Made by a program: the position numbers and the translations under genes
IMG/VR virus record: IMGVR_UViG_3300030090_003111
Location: 3,406 to 67,405 of that record
Length of the DNA stretch: 64,000 nt
Direction: 5' to 3' (one strand)
Source: a virus
Lineage: Duplodnaviria; Caudoviricetes
Notes under the pieces: model-generated
Seen by the model: only the letters and a program-made list of their open reading frames with translations
Database searches by the model: none
Told to the model about the DNA's origin: nothing
Part shown: one piece after another, positions 332 to 62,692 of the stretch
How positions within the stretch are numbered: the first letter of the stretch is position 1
Layout of the letters: each line of letters begins with the position of its first letter

Positions 332-1338
332 TTACGCTGCCCGATGGAGCCAAATGGGAACCCTCTTTTATGAGGTTGAGCCCTAGTAAGATTAATACAT
401 ACCATAAATGTCCTAGAGAGTTTTATTACAAGTATATAGCTCAGATGCCCGAAAAGAAAACAATACACTTATTTCGTGGAACCTTAGTGCATGCTGTACT
501 AGAAGACCTTTTCAAGAAGCAATTTCGTAATTTTACGGCTTGGGAGAAGGGAGACCCTTCCGCTTGGATGGAAGAACAGTTCCAGACTAGGTGGGCTAAG
601 GATATAGACAGTAAGACTTGGCTGCTTGAATTACACACCGCGGACGAAATGGCAGCCATGAAGCTTGAAACACAGGAATTATTACAAAATTTTGTAGGTT
701 CTGTCGATAAAAAGCTTAACGAAATGGTGACTTGGAAGATTTATAAGTCAAAATGGCAAGCATGGAACTCTGTAGCGCCAAAATATGCTGAAAAATGGGT
801 AAAATCCAAGGATTATGCTGTAATAGGGATAGTGGATGCTGTCTGTTCCGACTTTGATGGAGGAACTACTCTTCTGGATTACAAGACTTCTAAGCGATAT
901 GGACCATATCTACCAGAAGATTATTACAGACAGCTTATAATTTACGCATTTTTATACACTTTGGAGATGGGAGAGATGCCAAATTTCGTAGGTGTTAGCT
1001 ATTTACGCTTTGATGACACGTTTTATGTGAAAGTCAACCAAGGTGTTTTAGATGAAGCGAAAGAAGTTATCATGTATGTTCACGATTGTTTGAAAGAAAG
1101 GATGAAAGATGAGGATAAATATGAGCAAAAACCACAAAATTTATGTAAATGGTGTTCTTTTTACGTCGGAAATGGAGGACCATGTGACGTACAGCTACCA
1201 AAATGGAAGCCAAAAGGTAAAAGTTACACCAAAAAGTCAAATGTGAAAGCTGTTAACGCCATAATTGACGACGATATAGTAGATAATTTGCCTCAAGAAG
1301 GCGAAGGTGAGAAAAATACTGTCTGGCCGGAGGATTAA
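328..1338 (+). CDS. Cas4/RecB-like PD-(D/E)xK exonuclease with probable 4Fe-4S cluster
   Basis: LSPSKINTYHKCPREFYY, GIVDAV...LLDYKTS, QLIIYA, and C-terminal CKWCSFYVGNGGPC give the 1+3 Cys arrangement. Confidence 0.85.
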   Translation: MITLPDGAKWEPSFMRLSPSKINTYHKCPREFYYKYIAQMPEKKTIHLFRGTLVHAVLEDLFKKQFRNFTAWEKGDPSAWMEEQFQTRWAKDIDSKTWLLELHTADEMAAMKLETQELLQNFVGSVDKKLNEMVTWKIYKSKWQAWNSVAPKYAEKWVKSKDYAVIGIVDAVCSDFDGGTTLLDYKTSKRYGPYLPEDYYRQLIIYAFLYTLEMGEMPNFVGVSYLRFDDTFYVKVNQGVLDEAKEVIMYVHDCLKERMKDEDKYEQKPQNLCKWCSFYVGNGGPCDVQLPKWKPKGKSYTKKSNVKAVNAIIDDDIVDNLPQEGEGEKNTVWPED

Positions 1339-1955
1339 TGAGTAAATTCTTCATAGAAATAGGAACTTCCGACTTTGATACGCTAATTCCACTAGCTAAA
1401 GGTGGTTGGAAAGGTATTTTTGTGGAGCCAGTTGAGTATTTGTTAGATAATTTAGAGAGAATAGATGGTTGTGAGTATGTAAATGCTGCAATTACAGCCC
1501 ATACAGGTAAAACTACCATAAATTACCACTCTAACCCAGAGGAAGAATGGCATAAAGGTATAGGTTATGTCACTGATAAGAATATAATCGGTGACTTTAT
1601 ACCTCATTCTCACGAACCAGCCAAGCCTTCTAACTATTTTTGGCGTAATAATTTCGAAAATGTTACTAAAAAAGCTGTTGATTGTATGACTTTAGATAAA
1701 TTAATCGAAAAATATGACGTAAAAGAGATAGATTTCTTAAAAATAGACGTAGAAGGCATGGAACATACCATTCTTCACTCATATAGTTGGAAAATTAAAC
1801 CAAAAATCATGAAAATTGAGACAAAATGGGTGTATCGTGACGAAGATGACGTAGTTCATGGTGAGAATCTCATAGAGACTTGGCGCTCTCGTCTAGTAGA
1901 GTTAGGATACCTAGTTTACGAAGAAGATAGCGATTGGTACTGTTTATTGATATAA
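1338..1955 (+). CDS. FkbM-family SAM-dependent methyltransferase
   Basis: FIEIGT, IFVEPV, VNAAIT, TLDKLIEKYDVKEIDFLKIDVEGME motifs; TAATG coupling. Confidence 0.8.
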   Translation: MSKFFIEIGTSDFDTLIPLAKGGWKGIFVEPVEYLLDNLERIDGCEYVNAAITAHTGKTTINYHSNPEEEWHKGIGYVTDKNIIGDFIPHSHEPAKPSNYFWRNNFENVTKKAVDCMTLDKLIEKYDVKEIDFLKIDVEGMEHTILHSYSWKIKPKIMKIETKWVYRDEDDVVHGENLIETWRSRLVELGYLVYEEDSDWYCLLI

Positions 1956-36813: not shown

Positions 36814-37022
36814 TAACTTCTAGCGCTTTTATTAGTTTTACTTCTACTACCTAAATCACCATTGTCTGGTTCATCAGCAGCAGTTCTTCTAAGTATAGTT
36901 CCTTCAGGCATTTCAGTACCTTGTAAAGAATGTATACCTTGATTTAAAGTACCGTCTGAATTTAAATTTGCTGTTCTACCAAGTTTCTTGGTTCCTGTAA
37001 TAATATCTTTCTCAGATGTCAC
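36810..37022 (-). CDS. Hypothetical 70-aa protein
   Basis: GTG at 37022 overlapping nrdJ stop with GGAG 6 nt upstream; coding-like codon usage; stop overlaps the opposite-strand stop (TTAA). Confidence 0.5.
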   Translation of the reverse strand: MTSEKDIITGTKKLGRTANLNSDGTLNQGIHSLQGTEMPEGTILRRTAADEPDNGDLGSRSKTNKSARSY

Positions 37023-38877
37023 ACTTATCTCCTGTACATGCAAGCTCTTGTTTACCTTGAGTATTGTCCTCAAACTCGTATTCTGAGAGTTTGCTATAAT
37101 CTATTACGGGGAGGTTCTTTATAAAGCTTTCGTAGGTTCTATGGTCTATTTCCTCATATGGAGCTAATTTATAGTGTCCACCGTCGTATGGTAGGAAGGA
37201 CACACCATTGATTATATCCCAGTTTTTGTATACCCAATTCCCTACTTCAAACCATTCGTCGTCTCTGACATAAACAGTCATACTTGCGTTGTGTTCACAC
37301 CAGTTATGTTGTAGGTTTTTGTAATGACTTAGTTGTTCTAACGCAGTTACATCTTTACGTGTTACACAACCTTGTGGTGATTTAACAGGAAACTCTAATA
37401 CCCATGTACTTGCAGTCTCCTTTGTTTGTCCATTCTCTGGATGACATGGTATACCTACATCTTTCATCATCGCAAAGAGTGGGTCATTACCTGAAATTCT
37501 ATATCTTCTTATGTAATATTCAGAGTATCTTGGATGTACTCCTGATGCTGAATCTACAAGCTGTGAAACTGTACCACTTGGTTTGACACAAGTTGTTGCT
37601 GCTGGCATTTTTGTACCCAATATCCCTGATGCTTTACGAGATATGCGTAAAACACGGCTTTTAAGGGCCTTAAAGACCTCTGAGTTCATTAGGGAAGGGT
37701 TATCCATCTGACCGGTTAAACTAACGCCTAGAAGCGCTTCTGTGTCACAGTTCTTTTTCCATGTATTTCTGAGGTATGGGAAGTATGTAAATGAGCTCTG
37801 TATGACACCTAACCATGTAGCTGTCTCTACTTTGTCAAGTAGGCTATCTAAATCATCATCTTCTCTTACTACAACTTCACTAAGATTACAGAACTCCATA
37901 TCTCTAAGCATTATTTCGCCACAAGGGTTAGTTCCTTGTATTAATGGAGCATAACGTCTTGATGGAGCTTTGCTTTGTGCAGCATTAAGATTAAATATGC
38001 CTCTTTCCCCAGTGCCTGATAGAGCCAATGCAGCCCATTCAGACAAAAATTCACCTGCGGAGGGCTTTTCCCTATAGATAGCGCTATTATTTGCCATAGC
38101 ACGTTTGATGGGATAAGGCCACTCCTTCGCATGTCGCATATCTTTATCATGGAGGTCCGACAAGGATATCTGAGAGCTGCGACGAACTCCGCCAACAACA
38201 ACAATCTCAGCTATCTGATTACAAATATCATGACATTCGAGAGACGTGAGTTGACGTCCTTGAGCATTGTGCATGGTTTCACGTATGAAATCATGTAATT
38301 TTACCAGAGGTTGAGGTCCAGAAGCTCTACCACCCATAGTTTTGAGTCTAGCTCCTTCTAAACGAATCTCTGAGTAATCGAAATAGATGTTCTGTCCTTC
38401 ATACAGACTTTGCATAAGTGTCTTGACTGAGTCAGCCCATCCTTTTTTAGAATCTTCTATTACAACCTTTTTTAAGGCTTGTCCTGAGTTTATCTGTGGT
38501 ATTTTAGGTAGTTTACTTACTTCTTCTTGTTCTACTGAAAATCCGAATCCTGTACCACACATAAGGATATAAAGACACTCTGCAAATGCCTCTACGTTGT
38601 TTATCTTTGCAAAGGAACAGTTGTATATGCATGTATTATCTGCCTTTGCTGCTGGACCTGCGGCCCATAAAAATCTCATTGATGGCATTACTCCAAATTC
38701 CATCATATATTTCTTAATTTTATTCTGAGTTTTTTCAGGTATATCTGGTCTTTCTGAAATTACAAAACCCAAAAATCTATCTATGGTTTCTTCCCAATTT
38801 TCTCGTCTATTTTCTTCTTCTAACCAACGAGAATACGTTCTTTTATATATAAATTCTGCTACTTGATTCTTAAACAA
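37012..38877 (-). CDS. nrdJ: Class II (adenosylcobalamin-dependent) ribonucleotide reductase
   Basis: IYNCSF, GTNPCGEI...CNLSE, TCVKPSGTVSQL, C-terminal ELACTGDKCDI; no nrdB present. Confidence 0.92.
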   Translation of the reverse strand: MFKNQVAEFIYKRTYSRWLEEENRRENWEETIDRFLGFVISERPDIPEKTQNKIKKYMMEFGVMPSMRFLWAAGPAAKADNTCIYNCSFAKINNVEAFAECLYILMCGTGFGFSVEQEEVSKLPKIPQINSGQALKKVVIEDSKKGWADSVKTLMQSLYEGQNIYFDYSEIRLEGARLKTMGGRASGPQPLVKLHDFIRETMHNAQGRQLTSLECHDICNQIAEIVVVGGVRRSSQISLSDLHDKDMRHAKEWPYPIKRAMANNSAIYREKPSAGEFLSEWAALALSGTGERGIFNLNAAQSKAPSRRYAPLIQGTNPCGEIMLRDMEFCNLSEVVVREDDDLDSLLDKVETATWLGVIQSSFTYFPYLRNTWKKNCDTEALLGVSLTGQMDNPSLMNSEVFKALKSRVLRISRKASGILGTKMPAATTCVKPSGTVSQLVDSASGVHPRYSEYYIRRYRISGNDPLFAMMKDVGIPCHPENGQTKETASTWVLEFPVKSPQGCVTRKDVTALEQLSHYKNLQHNWCEHNASMTVYVRDDEWFEVGNWVYKNWDIINGVSFLPYDGGHYKLAPYEEIDHRTYESFIKNLPVIDYSKLSEYEFEDNTQGKQELACTGDKCDI

Positions 38878-57338: not shown

Positions 57339-57479
57339 TTATATACCCCTCTTTATCTTTACCTTTTTAACAGGTTTCCTTTCTATCACTTTATTGAAGT
57401 CTACAAACTGTCCACCTTGCTCAGCAGATGGTGGGAGTTCATATCCCTCATATGGTATCTTTACCTTACGCTGTTTCAT
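57339..57479 (-). CDS. 46-aa basic protein, probably leaderless
   Basis: Hand-translated MKQRKVKIPYEGYELPP...; ATG at the predicted TSS. Confidence 0.6.
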   Translation of the reverse strand: MKQRKVKIPYEGYELPPSAEQGGQFVDFNKVIERKPVKKVKIKRGI

Positions 57480-57501
57480 ATTCATATTTATATCTCGCTT
57501 A

Positions 57502-57515
57502 TATATAAAGCTTTC
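57502..57515 (-). promoter_or_regulatory. BRE-TATA promoter
   Basis: Exact motif. Confidence 0.8.
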
Positions 57516-57519
57516 GCTA

Positions 57520-57978
57520 AGTGATAGCAGAAGAGACAGCCTCTACCAGCGATGAGTTCGAGGGTATATCCTCCGTGTGGTCTGTCCTACTCTCCTTTGC
57601 TTTCGGCTGATTTGCCTACTTTGTTCGGCGTGGCCTGACACACATACTACTGTTGCTCATCAGTCTCTAAGACTCAATAGACTTACACAGGCTAACGTAT
57701 AACTCCAGCTTGACGTAAAGGTAGACGCAACCGCATAATGCGTTCAGCTAATCTCCTATACTTGGTTCAGCGTATAACTACCAAACATGGTTCGTATACG
57801 AGGTAGCACCATATCGCTACCTGAGTTTTACTCATTGGCATAGGGGCGTTTGTTCAAGTTCTGCTATCTTTAGTGGGATAGAAGCAAGGATAAAATTCGT
57901 TGCGTCATTCATCTCGTGGTGAACGACAAGTAAAAGAGGTAAAACAATGAGTTCCCTACTTCTATCCTATCACCATTA
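57520..57978 (-). ncRNA. Candidate ~460-nt structured non-coding RNA
   Basis: ORF-free, less AT-rich stretch with multiple long helices (10-bp 57523-32/57859-68; 9-bp 57876-84/57959-67; 8-bp 57830-37/57945-52) and a promoter-like box at 58002-58015. Confidence 0.55.
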
Positions 57979-58170
57979 GCGTTTGAGAGAAGCAACAGCC
58001 TTACTTAAAGCTTTGGCTATTACTTCTTTAGTTCTCTTACGACCATCACTACCATATAGGTTCAGGCCATATTTCTTTATCAGTGCATTGATTTGTATAG
58101 CGGTGGGGCGGACGGATTTGTATTCCTTCCGAATTAACCGTCTAATGATATCAATGCGACTAACTTGCAC
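57976..58170 (-). CDS. Small basic hypothetical protein
   Basis: GGAG upstream of GTG; overlaps ligase stop. Confidence 0.55.
   Translation of the reverse strand: MQVSRIDIIRRLIRKEYKSVRPTAIQINALIKKYGLNLYGSDGRKRTKEVIAKALSKAVASLKR
58002..58015 (-). promoter_or_regulatory. Candidate intragenic BRE-TATA (CAAAGCTTTAAGTA) for the ncRNA
   Basis: Matches consensus at most positions; predicted TSS about 57979, 11 nt before the first helix; lies inside a CDS so could be chance. Confidence 0.45.
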
Positions 58171-59029
58171 GTATAGACTCCGGTATCTGTGAGTATAGAC
58201 ACTCTGTCAACGACTTATCATCACGCCAACTATAGAACTTAGGATGACGAACGGACCCAGATGGGAACCAGCCATTACCTTTGGCAGTGAATACTTGACC
58301 GATATACTTGTCGGGATTGTCAGTGAACTCACGTCGCATAGCTTCAGTAAGACCACCACACTTTACGTCACAAGGCTTGTCAAACAGACTACCTCTGACA
58401 GCACCTACTTGACCAGCATACTTAGACTCAGGGTCAGCCATATCGAAACCAATACACATATACTCAATCTCTACCCGTTGTTTGATACGGATGTTTGCTT
58501 GAGGATAGTCATAGGCTTCGTTCTGTTTGAATACTAGACCCTCGAAGCCAGACATCTCTACGTAGTATTCCCACAGGTCTTCTACGTTATGAGTAGTATG
58601 AGCCATATCATAAGTGGGTGATACTCTGAAGTATTGTGATAGATACTTGTCTTTTAGTTTAGGTATAACATACTCGGCGATGTAAGATACATAGCCTTGT
58701 CTCGCACCGTATATCTCTTTGGATACATTACTACCTCGATACACAATACAATCAAAGGCATAGAACGCTTGGTTTGTATGAACAGGATGATTCTTGTTGT
58801 TTATATACTCACCTATAACTTCGTAGTGTATACCTTTGTCTTTTCCTTTATATACCCCGTGCTTCTTGAGTTTACCATTACGAGAGAATATTGCATACTC
58901 ACCGTCTTGGATAACCATTCTACCCCATATACCGTCATACTTAGGTTGAATATATCTGTATTGTGACAGAGATATATCATCCATATTGTCTTGGGTATAC
59001 TCGCTATACTTTGGTCTGTCTGTTATCAT
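58160..59029 (-). CDS. lig: ATP-dependent DNA ligase
   Basis: QPKYDG, GEY, FYAFD, EGLVFK, RIK, C-terminal OB fold RHPKF..WRDDK. Confidence 0.92.
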   Translation of the reverse strand: MITDRPKYSEYTQDNMDDISLSQYRYIQPKYDGIWGRMVIQDGEYAIFSRNGKLKKHGVYKGKDKGIHYEVIGEYINNKNHPVHTNQAFYAFDCIVYRGSNVSKEIYGARQGYVSYIAEYVIPKLKDKYLSQYFRVSPTYDMAHTTHNVEDLWEYYVEMSGFEGLVFKQNEAYDYPQANIRIKQRVEIEYMCIGFDMADPESKYAGQVGAVRGSLFDKPCDVKCGGLTEAMRREFTDNPDKYIGQVFTAKGNGWFPSGSVRHPKFYSWRDDKSLTECLYSQIPESIRAS

Positions 59030-61137
59030 ATCTTTAACACCTTCCTAATTAGTTTACTAAGCTCGATTGATAGCTTAGATGAATCTTCAATATACTTGTA
59101 GTTGGTAAACATATTACGCATCCAATGTTCGGATGCACCGGCAAAGCCTAACTGTATGACTGACCAGCCACGTGACTCTACGTGTTTGACACACTTGGCA
59201 GTATGCTCAATTGCACTTGCACCTCTATATGAAGCCGCTGAAGGCTGACCATCACTAAAGATAATCATAAGCTTATGCGACTGAGGTTGGTCAGTTTGTT
59301 CTACTACTCTGTCGGCTGATGCAACGATAGCATTACCGTCACGGTTTTCATACCTTGCACGCATACCACCCATACTTGTAGGGCGGTCGGAAGTGCGAGG
59401 ACCGAAGTATTCTATCATATCAGTCTGACCTCTACCACCTTCGTCGGCACTGTGACCGAATACCCAAAGGTTTAGTTGGTCATTACCACTCAATGCTTCT
59501 TTGACAGATATAGCGGCATCACGTGCGTGACGCATAGTGTATGAACCCATACTACCTGACTCGTCTACAAGTAGACATACATCCAATGGTTTATCCTGCT
59601 CAACAATGTCGAACTTGAATAGGTCAGAGCGACGCATAGGTATACGATGTAGCATACGCTTGTCAAGCTTACCTACCTTTTGGTTCCTGACAGTATACTT
59701 GTTCATATTACCATATAGTTGTATCTTACGCTTGAGTGAACCAATCACACCTTTCTTACGTGAGACAGCATCTCTATATACTTCTTTGTCTCTCGCAGTA
59801 TCTCTAGCAGTAGTCCAATTGATTTGTCTTTGACCATCAGCTATAGCGAGGCCCTTGTCCATATCATACTCTTCGTAGTCTGACTCTATCAAGCTACGTA
59901 TCTCTTCGATAACTTCACTATCAAGACCTTCACTTATATAGTCACTAAGCTCTACCCTTGCTTCACCACGTGCGTCACGTATAGGTGACTTACGTTCGAG
60001 TGCATCTTTGGCACGGGAGATAGCATCATCAGTCATACGGTCAAGAATCTTATCCATCTCACTGTCAGATAGTTCTATGTCTGATTCTGCAAACCTTGAT
60101 TTCATATCAGCGAATGCGTCATCTACCTCTGACATTACTTCTTTCATATCTATCTCATCGTCTTTAGCCATACGTTCGGCTGCTTTCTTAAGATAGTTGT
60201 ATAGGGATAAGATACAGGTATAAGTATTTTCTCTACTATCAAGACCCGTAGCTAATGCACGGGCAAAGAAGCGTATATGTGGGGCGTGTCGCTTTTTTCT
60301 ATCGTCATCAATAAGTGTAGGATAACGTATAAGCATCATAAGAGTATTGATAAGGTCAGCTAATGGTTGTGAAGATTCTTCGTCTATACCACTATCTGCG
60401 AAGTAATGTTCTTTAGTCTTCTCGATATAGTGAACGAAACCACCACACGTTTTAGCTAATTGCTTTTCGATATACTCATCTTCCACAATATTACATATAG
60501 AATGCAACAACCATTGTTCGTCACCATTCACACATGAGTCATACTTTTGTTTACGTTCCCACTCCATAAGGTCTTTGGAGTGTATAAGGTGTAGCTTTTC
60601 ATGGATAGCGAGACCTGACACAACGTCTAACTTTTCGTCATCGTGTTGTATCAGTTTACCATCTACTACTATTCTACCACTACGGATGTCAGTATAACCT
60701 GATGATGTGTTGGCAAACTCAAGAGTATGCTTGACAGTAGGGTCAACTACTTTACATAGGGAGTCAAGGTGTGACTTATGTTTAGCTAATCTCTTAGCAG
60801 TATCGTCATAACCATACGAACTACCTCCCCACATACCACTCAGTGTGGTAGAGCCACTGCCTGACCACCATGAGCTACCGCTACCCCATGTGAAACCACC
60901 ACCGGTTCTACCCCAAAGGTCACCGCTGGAGTATACGCTTGGTGCAGGTGTGATAGCTGTCTTAGCTGTGGTAGGATGAGCATACTCATCACCTACTACT
61001 CCATCAAGGTGGTTGCCACAGGTAGAACAACACTCGTTGTCATCTTCTTTAGTCTTTACCCAATCCTGACAGGTATAACACCAGCCTTCACTCTTATCGG
61101 CTGAAACAGCCCAATCGTCTATAGTGTAGATATCCAT
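59026..61137 (-). CDS. vWA (CobT-like) protein with N-terminal HExxH metalloprotease-like domain
   Basis: AIHEKLH...NIVED..IE; MIDAS LVDESGSM, NRDG, IFSDGQP. Confidence 0.88.
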   Translation of the reverse strand: MDIYTIDDWAVSADKSEGWCYTCQDWVKTKEDDNECCSTCGNHLDGVVGDEYAHPTTAKTAITPAPSVYSSGDLWGRTGGGFTWGSGSSWWSGSGSTTLSGMWGGSSYGYDDTAKRLAKHKSHLDSLCKVVDPTVKHTLEFANTSSGYTDIRSGRIVVDGKLIQHDDEKLDVVSGLAIHEKLHLIHSKDLMEWERKQKYDSCVNGDEQWLLHSICNIVEDEYIEKQLAKTCGGFVHYIEKTKEHYFADSGIDEESSQPLADLINTLMMLIRYPTLIDDDRKKRHAPHIRFFARALATGLDSRENTYTCILSLYNYLKKAAERMAKDDEIDMKEVMSEVDDAFADMKSRFAESDIELSDSEMDKILDRMTDDAISRAKDALERKSPIRDARGEARVELSDYISEGLDSEVIEEIRSLIESDYEEYDMDKGLAIADGQRQINWTTARDTARDKEVYRDAVSRKKGVIGSLKRKIQLYGNMNKYTVRNQKVGKLDKRMLHRIPMRRSDLFKFDIVEQDKPLDVCLLVDESGSMGSYTMRHARDAAISVKEALSGNDQLNLWVFGHSADEGGRGQTDMIEYFGPRTSDRPTSMGGMRARYENRDGNAIVASADRVVEQTDQPQSHKLMIIFSDGQPSAASYRGASAIEHTAKCVKHVESRGWSVIQLGFAGASEHWMRNMFTNYKYIEDSSKLSIELSKLIRKVLKI

Positions 61138-61493
61138 TCGTCTATATTATCCTCTTCGTTCTTAGCTTCTAGTATAAGCTTCATCTCAAAACATTTCAAT
61201 GTTCTTTTCATAGCACCTATGCTACAGTCATATACAAATCTATCATCATCAGTGACCAAACCGTATGATATACTCAGTGCATCATTCATGTTCATAGTAG
61301 CAGTGGTGGGGCGGTCGGGAACTATACCTTCGGTTTTAAGCCTACGGTTATATGCTCCGACGTGTCGCCCTGTCACTTCGCTTAGTGGGAATACATCTTT
61401 TATACACTTAGCAACTAATGCAGGTTTGAGACCCATAGAAAGCAAACCCTTAGCAAGGGTATGCCAATATGTATCTTTCTTTCTACTAACCAT
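61119..61493 (-). CDS. Hypothetical protein
   Basis: ORF between MoxR ATPase and vWA gene. Confidence 0.7.
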   Translation of the reverse strand: MVSRKKDTYWHTLAKGLLSMGLKPALVAKCIKDVFPLSEVTGRHVGAYNRRLKTEGIVPDRPTTATMNMNDALSISYGLVTDDDRFVYDCSIGAMKRTLKCFEMKLILEAKNEEDNIDEWISTL

Positions 61494-62654
61494 TTAGTCT
61501 CCCATTGATTGTATAGTCTGCATAACTTTTACTCTTTCTGTATCGTCACCTGCTTGGATAGGATAGAATGGTAGACATACCTGCTTGAGTGCTTCAAGCA
61601 TAGTCATACCATCTGCAACGTATTCAGCAGTGGACAAACACATACGTGTAGATACAGCAGTATTCAACTCTTCCGATTTGTAGAGATTTCTGACTCTACT
61701 TGCGAAGTCAGTGATACGTTCAGCGTCTACATCAGAGATAGTAGGAACTCTTATCTTAAGAAGTTCTGCTTCTTTATCTGCTGGTAGATACTCTAACTCG
61801 TATATACCTCCGGTAAATCTATCTTTCCATGCTCTATCTAAGTCATGGGCCGCACCCAAATACTCTCTACCAATGTTGGCAGTAGCATAGAAGAAAGCAC
61901 CGTCGTTTATCTGAACGGTATCAGCGTCATCACTCTCATCGAGTGCTAAGTATTTCTGTCCGTCAAGGACAGGCATAAGGATATTAGCTAAGTCACCGGT
62001 TCTATCTCTCGTGACTTCGTCAAGCATAATGAATGCACCCTTGTCATCTTGTAGGGCAGAGACAAATCTGGATGGTTTGAAGAATGTCCCACGCTCACTA
62101 TCATATTTAGTGTCACCGAGTATCTTTGCAGATGGATTCATAGTGTCACCAAAGTTGAAAGCATAGAATGGTTTGTTGGATATATCCGCCAATATTCTAC
62201 CGAGACTACTCTTACCACATCCGGATGGACCGGTAATCAATATACTCTTACCTCTGAAGATGTTTCTAAGCATAGTATAAAATGTCATACTATCAGCGAA
62301 CTTGAACTCTTCAGGGATATCAACACTACCCTTCAGCTTAGATAGGACTGTTGGTATATGTGGGGCAGGTGGCTCAGGTTCTACTTCTTCTTCTGCAACA
62401 GCAGGAGTAGTAAAATGCCATGCGTCTATATCATCCACTATTTCACTCCATTCGGAACGGGAGATATACTCACTATCACTATCATATTCTCCACAACACA
62501 GTTCCATATAGTCACTGCGTAGACGGTGTATACGTGTCTCTTTGTCCATACCTTTATAGTATTCTGTTCCTACTTCATCGGGGGAACTATCCTCATCATG
62601 CACGGGCTCTCTATCATAAGATAGGTCACCTCTTTCTATGTCTTTATAACTCAT
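61494..62654 (-). CDS. MoxR/CbbQ/NirQ-family AAA+ ATPase (CobS-like)
   Basis: GPSGCGKS, IMLDEV, ATAN, LDRAWKDRF, STR; ATG 62654 lies downstream of the predicted TSS. Confidence 0.9.
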   Translation of the reverse strand: MSYKDIERGDLSYDREPVHDEDSSPDEVGTEYYKGMDKETRIHRLRSDYMELCCGEYDSDSEYISRSEWSEIVDDIDAWHFTTPAVAEEEVEPEPPAPHIPTVLSKLKGSVDIPEEFKFADSMTFYTMLRNIFRGKSILITGPSGCGKSSLGRILADISNKPFYAFNFGDTMNPSAKILGDTKYDSERGTFFKPSRFVSALQDDKGAFIMLDEVTRDRTGDLANILMPVLDGQKYLALDESDDADTVQINDGAFFYATANIGREYLGAAHDLDRAWKDRFTGGIYELEYLPADKEAELLKIRVPTISDVDAERITDFASRVRNLYKSEELNTAVSTRMCLSTAEYVADGMTMLEALKQVCLPFYPIQAGDDTERVKVMQTIQSMGD

Positions 62655-62692
62655 TGTTTTTCTCTTCGTTATGGTCAATAATGTTTTAGGGG

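Follow-up and report, generated by a model that had tools for sequence, protein, structure and literature searches.

A gene-free stretch of about 460 nt in a viral genome very probably encodes a member of a real structured-RNA family, conserved, modular, read in the sense of the neighboring genes and located at the end of a MoxR/VWA operon. The family is uncatalogued and matches no RNA family described in Rfam. The window (the whole stretch of DNA analyzed, 64 kb out of an IMG/VR virus record of 67.4 kb with an estimated completeness of 96%) contains this element on the minus strand between 57974 and 57523 (452 nt), starting at the conserved GGUGAUAGG and stopping at the end of the 3′ strand of helix P2.

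57523..57974, minus strand: the whole RNA element, with boundaries kept in 31 distinct relatives.

The element starts 2 nt past a stop codon (57976-78) and its 3′ end lies 5 nt before the next BRE/TATA box, in agreement with an earlier annotation made from the letters of this DNA (hereafter, the sequence-only reading), which had the element end at the next promoter. The same reading saw no credible ORF in these ~460 nt, and indeed the longest ORFs within 57520-57978 are 32 and 41 aa. The element occurs once per genome, and its G+C content is as high as 0.44 (vs 0.32-0.39 in the adjacent small-ORF region). The comparison with dinucleotide shuffles that the reading had suggested as a check showed the element to be more stable on both strands: the minimum free energy was −145.3 kcal/mol for the minus strand (shuffles −125.7±6.1, z −3.2) and −147.1 kcal/mol for the plus strand (shuffles −126.5±6.0, z −3.5), with 0 out of 100 shuffles folding as well as the element. 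The window sequence by itself is insufficient to place the helices beyond chance; they are so placed because relatives keep them through compensatory changes.

The relatives were first reached through homologs of the neighboring ligase, which led to syntenic contigs also containing a gene-free gap. In a close relative (ligase 88% identical) this gap aligns with that of the window except for whole blocks lost or gained, and in the contig L005, with a ligase 49% and a VWA protein 56% identical to those of the window, the first 130 nt, which include the P1 domain, are 87.6% identical. A search pattern derived from P1, GATAGGATAGRAG-N(48-78)-YCTATCCCACTA, matched 42 marine metagenome contigs and 4 IMG/VR contigs, and had no matches in 185,579 cellular species genomes. 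A second pattern, from the inner junction, retrieved a more divergent member (L068). It also caught L067, an unrelated IMG/VR contig that does not belong to the family; past a gene end (1250-1800, minus strand) it carries an apparent iteron array, made up of over 20 irregularly spaced GAGAGAACCA-like units. Altogether, the marine metagenomes and IMG/VR yielded 31 distinct full-length elements of 271-705 nt, with L014 as the minimal one (271 nt), and an additional ~235-nt version read by eye in L016 brings the family span to 235-705 nt. Marine sequencing runs, 14 of them and from no fewer than 7 studies, contain DNA nearly identical to that of the window. BLAST of the element and the surrounding 14 kb against 50,697 phage records gave no match; the IMG/VR scans with the ligase as a single protein and with an exact 24-mer found nothing, and neither did a scan of genome contigs for aIF-1A performed as a host search.

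Common to all members are an almost invariant P1 hairpin domain, a closing stack of helices P2-P3-P4 and an inner three-way junction. The first two are laid out in the window as follows.

57873..57973, minus strand: P1 domain, with P1a GUG/CAC (57973-71 with 57875-73) and an AUA bulge.
57967-53 with 57890-76, minus strand: P1 and P1b, GGAUAGAAGUAGGGA/UCCUUGCUUCUAUCC.
57928-20 with 57911-03, minus strand: P1 apical hairpin.
57936..57951, minus strand: single strand at the P1 apex, CUCAUUGUUUUACCUC, near-invariant and present in all members.
57869..57877, minus strand: junction J1/2, CCCACUAAA, with CCCACUA invariant in all pattern-derived members.
57859..57868, minus strand: P2 5′ strand, GAUAGCAGAA, pairing with 57523-32.
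57523..57532, minus strand: P2 3′ strand, UUCUGCUAUC, the RNA 3′ end; in relatives a BRE/TATA box or RBS lies within 2-25 nt.
57840..57847, minus strand: P3 5′ strand, GCCCCUAU, pairing with GUAGAGGC, with one C-A mismatch in the window.
57539..57546, minus strand: P3 3′ strand, GUAGAGGC, the covarying partner.
57830..57836, minus strand: P4 5′ strand, AAUGAGU, overlapping the CAAUGAGU of the sequence-only reading (57837-30) and pairing with ACUCAU at 57552-57.
57551..57557, minus strand: P4 3′ strand, ACUCAUC, the covarying partner.

The features by which the family is recognized are all found in the window: a 5′ hairpin P1 composed of GUG, an AUA bulge, GGAUAGRAG ... CUYCUAUCC and CAC (57973-57873); the junction CCCACUAWA and, after it, a P2 helix of 9-11 bp whose second strand is the 3′ end of the element (57868-59 with 57532-23); P3 and P4 stacked inside P2 (57847-40/57546-39 with one C-A mismatch, and 57836-30/57557-51); an inner three-way junction containing GAACCAAG, CGUCAAGC and a RAUAUGGU-loop hairpin (57768-61, 57715-08 and 57822-01); and a location downstream of, and on the same strand as, the MoxR/VWA genes, ending at the next promoter. 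The consensus of the junction ahead of P2 is CCCACUAWAK. The first two pairings originally proposed, GATAGCAGAA (57523-32) with TTCTGCTATC (57859-68) and GGATAGAAG (57876-84) with CTTCTATCC (57959-67), are both present, and both are preserved in relatives by compensatory changes.

Compensatory changes are seen in P1, P2, P3 and P4. The variable part of P1, read at fixed offsets from the invariant anchors, occurs in 11 stem variants, which comprise 60 Watson-Crick, 17 G-U and no mismatched pairs. Even the divergent L068 retains the P1 helix (as GGUAAUAAG/CUUGUUACC), and keeps P1, P2 and P4 with other letters. P2 was tested separately, being out of register between subgroups in the alignment described below: a 9-bp partner was found at the expected offset in all 31 sequences vs 0-3 out of 31 at control offsets, and at least 11 distinct, perfectly complementary versions of P2 exist among the relatives. 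P3 occurs in approximately 15 covarying versions (e.g. GCCCAAAA/UUUUGGGU, GCCCAAGA/UCUUGGGU and CCAAAC/GUUUGG). The P4 versions of relatives include CUGAG/CUCAG, CUGAG/CUUAG (with a G-U pair) and CUGAAU/AUUCAG, and in L068 the helix is flipped (CUCAGU/ACUGAG). The apex strand of P1, CUCAUUnUUUUACCUC, precedes the apical hairpin (5′ side) in group A, whereas group B has it on the 3′ side. A bulge-helix-bulge motif of the splicing endonuclease, sought by eye in P1a and P2-P3, was represented only by a single, non-canonical 3-nt bulge.

For a statistical assessment, 29 pairs of P1a, P1, P1b, P3 and P4 were scored in a sequence-only MAFFT alignment of 28 members (A3). The pairs were canonical in 95.9% of 811 cells, 13 of the 29 pairs showed two-sided changes, and the covariation score of 0.327 was not reached in any of 500 column shuffles (0.12±0.01). 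Sliding the partners by 1-3 columns reduced the canonical fraction to 38-51% and the score to at most 0.087. The collection of homologous loci and the covariation test that the sequence-only reading had called for thus returned strong covariation in the P1-P4 helices. The invariant loops show no covariation that would point to a tertiary or intermolecular contact.

The same cells contain 70 G-U vs 12 A-C combinations (46 vs 0 in P1 and P1b). As the G-U pairs would turn into mismatches on the opposite strand, this asymmetry identifies the gene-sense strand (minus in the window) as the functional one, in line with the minus-strand RNA originally proposed. It also bears on a second option of that reading, a structured DNA origin, or more generally a DNA-level element (a replication origin or a protein-binding site with extruded hairpins). 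Such an element would be compatible with the location in the replication-gene half of the genome, with the sequence conservation of the P1 stem and with the equally good folding of the plus strand. However, selection for G-U over A-C is not expected in duplex DNA, long-range helices spanning 330-680 nt covary, the G+C content is raised, neither iterons nor an AT-rich unwinding region are found, and contigs from RNA libraries exist (see below), all of which makes the DNA option highly improbable.

The inner part of the element combines the conserved three-way junction with a set of variable hairpins.

57801..57822, minus strand: hairpin H1, AGGUAGCG-AUAUGG-UGCUACCU, belonging to the inner three-way junction, which is conserved.
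57771..57800, minus strand: extra hairpin CGUAUA...UAUACG, a subgroup insertion in the window and L039, replaced or missing elsewhere.
57708..57768, minus strand: inner junction region, with the invariant GAACCAAG (57768-61), helix H2, its apex and CGUCAAGC (57715-08).
57761-55 with 57721-15, minus strand: helix H2, GUAUAGG with CCUUUAC, the apex carrying a CGCA-UUA-UGCG hairpin.
57560..57707, minus strand: variable plug-in modules, each present in some relatives and missing from others.
57662-74, minus strand: module, AGUCU hairpin.
57636-27, minus strand: module, AGGCCACGCC.
57620-00, minus strand: module, AGUA-GGC..GCC-GAAA hairpin, in the window, L005, L029 and L042 and not in L003.
57592-84, minus strand: module, GAGUAGGAC.
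57573-60, minus strand: module, GAGG/CCUC hairpin.

The local hairpins listed in the sequence-only reading (57801-22, 57771-800, CGCA-TAA-TGCG, and AGTCT-CTA-AGACT at 57662-74) were all found at these positions. H1 retains the loop motif RAUAUGGU on a covarying stem (GUAGC/GCUAC, GGUAUC/GAUACC, GUAUAAC/GUUAUAC, GGAGG/CCUCC), GAACCA is invariant in all 28 aligned members, and H2 also covaries (GUAAAGG/CCUUUAC, GUAUAGG/CCUAUAC, ACGUAGG/CCUAUGU). When the three-way junction was simply aligned with MAFFT, register shifts left RNAalifold with no more than 5 pairs. The threefold range of lengths in the family is due to hairpin modules that come and go between members.

Several side observations concern short motifs in this part of the RNA. 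In 8 members (L017, 2715-2726, and seven others) the apex of H2 forms a perfect palindrome of 12 nt, GAUUAGCUAAUC, which is imperfect in the window (57754-57743); other subgroups have different palindromes near this apex (AGGUUAACCU, GGCAUGCC and CGCAUGCG). The palindrome could be a mini-hairpin or a kissing-dimer site. Palindromes of at least 8 nt are not enriched overall (47 observed vs 78±8 in shuffles). An optional module, GUGAUAAACAAGG(UAGC), present in L005, L012, L013 and L017, resembles GUAACAAGGUAGCC, which we take to be universally conserved near the 3′ end of 16S rRNA. Likewise, the P1 apex strand ends with ACCUCY, presumably comparable to the anti-Shine-Dalgarno tail at the 16S rRNA 3′ end.

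One of the optional modules accounts for the only trace of a known RNA family. The search of Rfam 15 proposed in the sequence-only reading gave no match at the gathering score in the whole window, and at E ≤10 only the RT-2 RNA motif (RF03077) appeared, with 20.6 bits, and no ribozyme or riboswitch models. The RT-2 match (cmscan, E 0.016, 57494-57633, minus strand) reflects a short AGUA-hairpin-GAAA module followed by AAAGGAGAG, the common letters being ACAAAGUAG-hairpin-CGAAA and AAAGGAGAG (RT-2 is described in Weinberg et al. 2017, PMC5737381). That the element is a relative of RT-2 working with a reverse transcriptase has next to no probability: the score is half of the gathering score of 40, the match covers only the optional module that L003 lacks, and a reverse-transcriptase domain (PF00078) is absent from the whole 67-kb record. 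We therefore reject RT-2 membership, and the common piece looks like a generic AGUA/GAA loop motif. ARAGORN found no tRNA or tmRNA in the element, which together with the Rfam result upholds the original proposal of a novel large structured viral ncRNA on the minus strand.

Two other features of that proposal, a pseudoknot and a switch, fared less well in the comparison of relatives. In the window, ACTCATTG (57830-37) does pair with CAATGAGT (57945-52) as described; this pairing, however, reaches 8 bp only in the subgroup of the window and 4-5 bp elsewhere, and the covarying partner of CAAUGAGU (57837-30) is ACUCAU (57557-52, P4) and not the P1 apex strand. The partner-swapping GAUAG segments interpreted as a switch are subgroup-specific. 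The comparison supports neither the pseudoknot nor the switch, although either may form in this virus. A conformational switch or riboswitch, in which either these GAUAG-type segments or the ACUCAUUG/CAAUGAGU pairing would swap partners and regulate a neighbor gene, could draw on the two potential partners of CAAUGAGU in the window, the P1 apex strand (8 bp) and ACUCAU of P4, and on the complementarity, read by eye, of the 5′ flank and GUGAUAG to CUAUCAC-UUAGCG at the 3′ end. But both alternatives are confined to a subgroup, the apex pairing shrinks to 4-5 bp elsewhere while P4 covaries, and no Rfam riboswitch matches even at E ≤10; we consider a switch very improbable. In addition, a BRE/TATA promoter separates the RNA from the next ORF in the window and most relatives, which argues against a riboswitch or a cis-regulatory leader in a 5′ UTR.

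A ribozyme, be it self-cleaving or self-splicing, or the remnant of an intron or mobile element was considered in view of the size of the element, its multi-helix core and a CUGAUGAG string at 57664-57657. Short segments (ACUAAAU and ACCAAGU) resemble what we take to be group I junctions, and group I introns are similar in size and in having stacked helices closed by long-range pairings. On the other hand, ribozyme models, including those of group I, group II and hammerhead, gave no match at E ≤10, and neither exons nor a homing endonuclease accompany the element, which is bounded by a stop codon and a promoter. Relatives do not conserve the CUGAUGAG string, and there is a single copy of the element per genome. 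The catalytic and intron options are accordingly very improbable.

Among large RNAs, the closest in appearance are GOLLD, ROOL, OLE and raiA, the large "ornate" ncRNAs of bacteria, phages and prophages, shown by cryo-EM to form RNA-only homo-oligomers (PMC12286853). The element shares with them a size of several hundred nt, many helices, conserved junctions, carriage by viruses, the non-coding character and recognition by covariation. It differs in its host viruses, which have archaeal-type promoters, in its constant place, which is not near tRNAs but closes a MoxR/VWA operon, and in a fixed base with swappable modules. The models of GOLLD, ROOL, OLE, raiA, HEARO and IMES had 0 matches at the gathering score in the window and 7 related loci, and none at E ≤10. 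The manA RNA (RF01745), also a structured RNA of marine viruses, was rejected as it gave no match at E ≤10 and has a different locus and architecture. Tan1, an abundant ncRNA of 229 nt attributed to Marine Group II archaea (Hou et al. 2016, PMC5069720), is similar by description alone (ocean habitat, presumed host lineage, complex fold, abundance in metatranscriptomes, no known family) and is set apart by the lack of the P1 pattern in the cellular species genomes searched.

The genome carrying the element encodes a large terminase, a family-B DNA polymerase, an eIF-1A-type factor (aIF-1A), RecU and a B12-dependent ribonucleotide reductase (37012-38877). A motif, cGAAAGCTTTATATA, is present in the window in 11 copies (vs 0.2 expected), each of them preceding a gene and oriented like it (e.g. 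1960-76, 6070-86, 40009-25 and 57501-17); judged by its letters, it reads as a putative archaeal BRE with a TATA box. These archaeal-type promoters and the gene set fit magroviruses of Marine Group II archaea (PMC5434244). Since the DNA polymerase had only distant bacterial-phage matches among phage records and no named magrovirus match, we use the label "magrovirus-like". The host viruses are marine tailed viruses with archaeal-type promoters, and they probably infect archaea. The neighborhood of the RNA in the window is as follows.

58160..62678, minus strand: upstream operon, one block of abutting genes with Pfam, PHROGs and PDB matches.
62678..61494, minus strand: MoxR-type AAA ATPase.
Between the MoxR and VWA genes, minus strand: 124-aa ORF.
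61137..59026, minus strand: VWA protein of CobT/NorD type, 703 aa, with NorD as the best solved relative.
59029..58160, minus strand: ATP-dependent ligase, 289 aa.
57976..58170, minus strand: conserved basic 64-aa ORF, its stop codon abutting the RNA, with homologs before the RNA in group A, L017, L054 and L016.
58002..58015, minus strand: promoter-like box CAAAGCUUUAAGUA, within the coding sequence of the 64-aa ORF (codons A-K-A-L-S-K-A).
57501..57517, minus strand: BRE/TATA promoter of the next unit, GCGAAAGCTTTATATAT, driving a 48-aa ORF (57485..57339).

Every locus with sufficient DNA ahead of the RNA has a VWA gene there, on the same strand and at a distance of 127-1786 nt. In most loci the ligase lies within 190-875 nt of the RNA; one group has it upstream, the other downstream. 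In L068 it is non-adjacent. With the VWA gene constant and the position of the ligase varying, the constant companion of the RNA is the MoxR/VWA operon, of which the RNA is the last element. A module of the Ro60/Y-RNA type (VWA protein, structured RNA and ligase) was rejected, as this VWA protein has only VWA and CobT_C domains without TROVE and its best solved relative is NorD.

The RNA begins 2-10 nt past the stop codon of a small gene, encoding either a basic protein of 64-99 aa or one of 35-55 aa with a hydrophobic tail, and no promoter-like sequence is shared upstream of it. At the other end, the next BRE/TATA box comes 2-25 nt past the P2 3′ strand; four members (L030, L042, L046 and L053) have an RBS and start codon there instead. 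An AlphaFold2 model of the 64-aa protein (pLDDT 88.6) has three helices and a short beta hairpin. The protein has no Pfam, PHROG or PDB match, and Foldseek found nothing similar to the model at E ≤0.001, so this fold without a solved relative offers no functional lead; the gene is not always adjacent to the RNA and the model lacks a recognizable RNA-binding fold. In group B (L012, 1794-1934; L014, 2642-2761; and others) the gene preceding the RNA encodes 35-55 aa with a tail of the type ..EAEWYILxxFFxMIWMWMF.., and L017 has both small genes in tandem before the RNA.

The sequence-only reading assigned to the RNA a promoter of its own at 58015-58002. The box does exist (core AAAGCTTTA at 58006-58014, minus strand), but it is coding sequence, has 4 mismatches to the consensus of the virus and is not conserved, being missing from two relatives with an unchanged gene order, L005 and L050, and from all group-B members. 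It may act as a weak internal promoter in the subgroup of the window and is not a feature of the family.

Transcription of the region is suggested by contigs lying wholly inside the element in 3 out of 4 RNA libraries, from 3 studies, although these are assembled contigs and not reads, and DNA carry-over is possible. One contig (57584-57748) is identical to the window at a word depth of 33.7, two others cover 57628-57760 and 57708-57760, and another (57654-57831) comes from a relative of 90-95% identity. In the RNA run X18, a contig follows the element as far as 57628, where a variable module has its edge, and continues with 11 unrelated letters; this sample appears to also contain a relative with a different module. 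No contig of any RNA run covered the flanking genes and the run X17 yielded none at all, but neither of these absences carries weight as evidence.

As an explanation of the whole, we tentatively favor, at somewhat less than even confidence, a modular structured RNA at the end of the MoxR/VWA(-ligase) operon that forms a trans-acting stable particle; on the trans-acting mechanism itself we are a degree more reserved. The RNA would be made as the tail of the MoxR/VWA operon transcript, a co-transcription suggested by the lack of a conserved promoter of its own, and would persist as a compact particle with its ends locked by the P2-P4 closing stack. It would act in trans via its invariant surfaces, namely the apex strand CUCAUUnUUUUACCUC, the junction CCCACUAAA and the GAACCAAG/CGUCAAGC junction. 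A conserved partner, viral or from the host, would be bound by these surfaces, the RNA serving as scaffold or decoy and perhaps forming a homo-oligomer, and the swappable modules would tune this.

The main competing possibility is a cis-acting element that stays on the MoxR/VWA(-ligase) mRNA, protecting its 3′ end from exonucleases or insulating it from the transcription unit that follows, with no function in trans. The fixed position at the operon end fits this role as well as it does a role in trans: the RNA is always the last operon feature, starts right past a stop codon, ends at the next promoter and has no conserved promoter of its own. At the same time, a length of 235-705 nt with invariant loops and junctions and a three-way junction exceeds what end protection needs, and entire modules differ between members on a fixed base. 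Furthermore, no U-tract terminator follows P2, the sole U-rich run, AGUUUUGUUUUGGG, being inside the fold and missing in the window. Overall, we regard a purely cis-acting role as unlikely, though a serious contender.

A more specific version of the favored trans-acting particle is suggested by analogy with ROOL and GOLLD: a self-assembling RNA particle of archaeal viruses, a homo-oligomer or an RNP core, that would capture or mimic a host component during infection. We consider this version improbable as it stands. In such a particle the P1 apex strand and the junctions would be the contacts and the modules the outward-facing, fast-evolving parts. A putative resemblance of the ACCUCY apex strand to the 16S rRNA 3′ end, in a virus that encodes aIF-1A, is one possibility for such mimicry suggested by the letters of this strand.

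Large structured RNAs of unknown role are rare, and new classes of them have tended to reveal new biochemistry. No such large structured RNA is described for archaeal viruses in two papers on magroviruses (PMC5434244, PMC11706807). The family reported here belongs to viruses common in the ocean, combines deep covariation with a base-plus-modules design, and has a fixed genomic partner, the MoxR/VWA operon, itself unexplained in viruses. Together, the covariation, the design and the fixed partner provide handles for structure determination, binding tests and metatranscriptome mapping.
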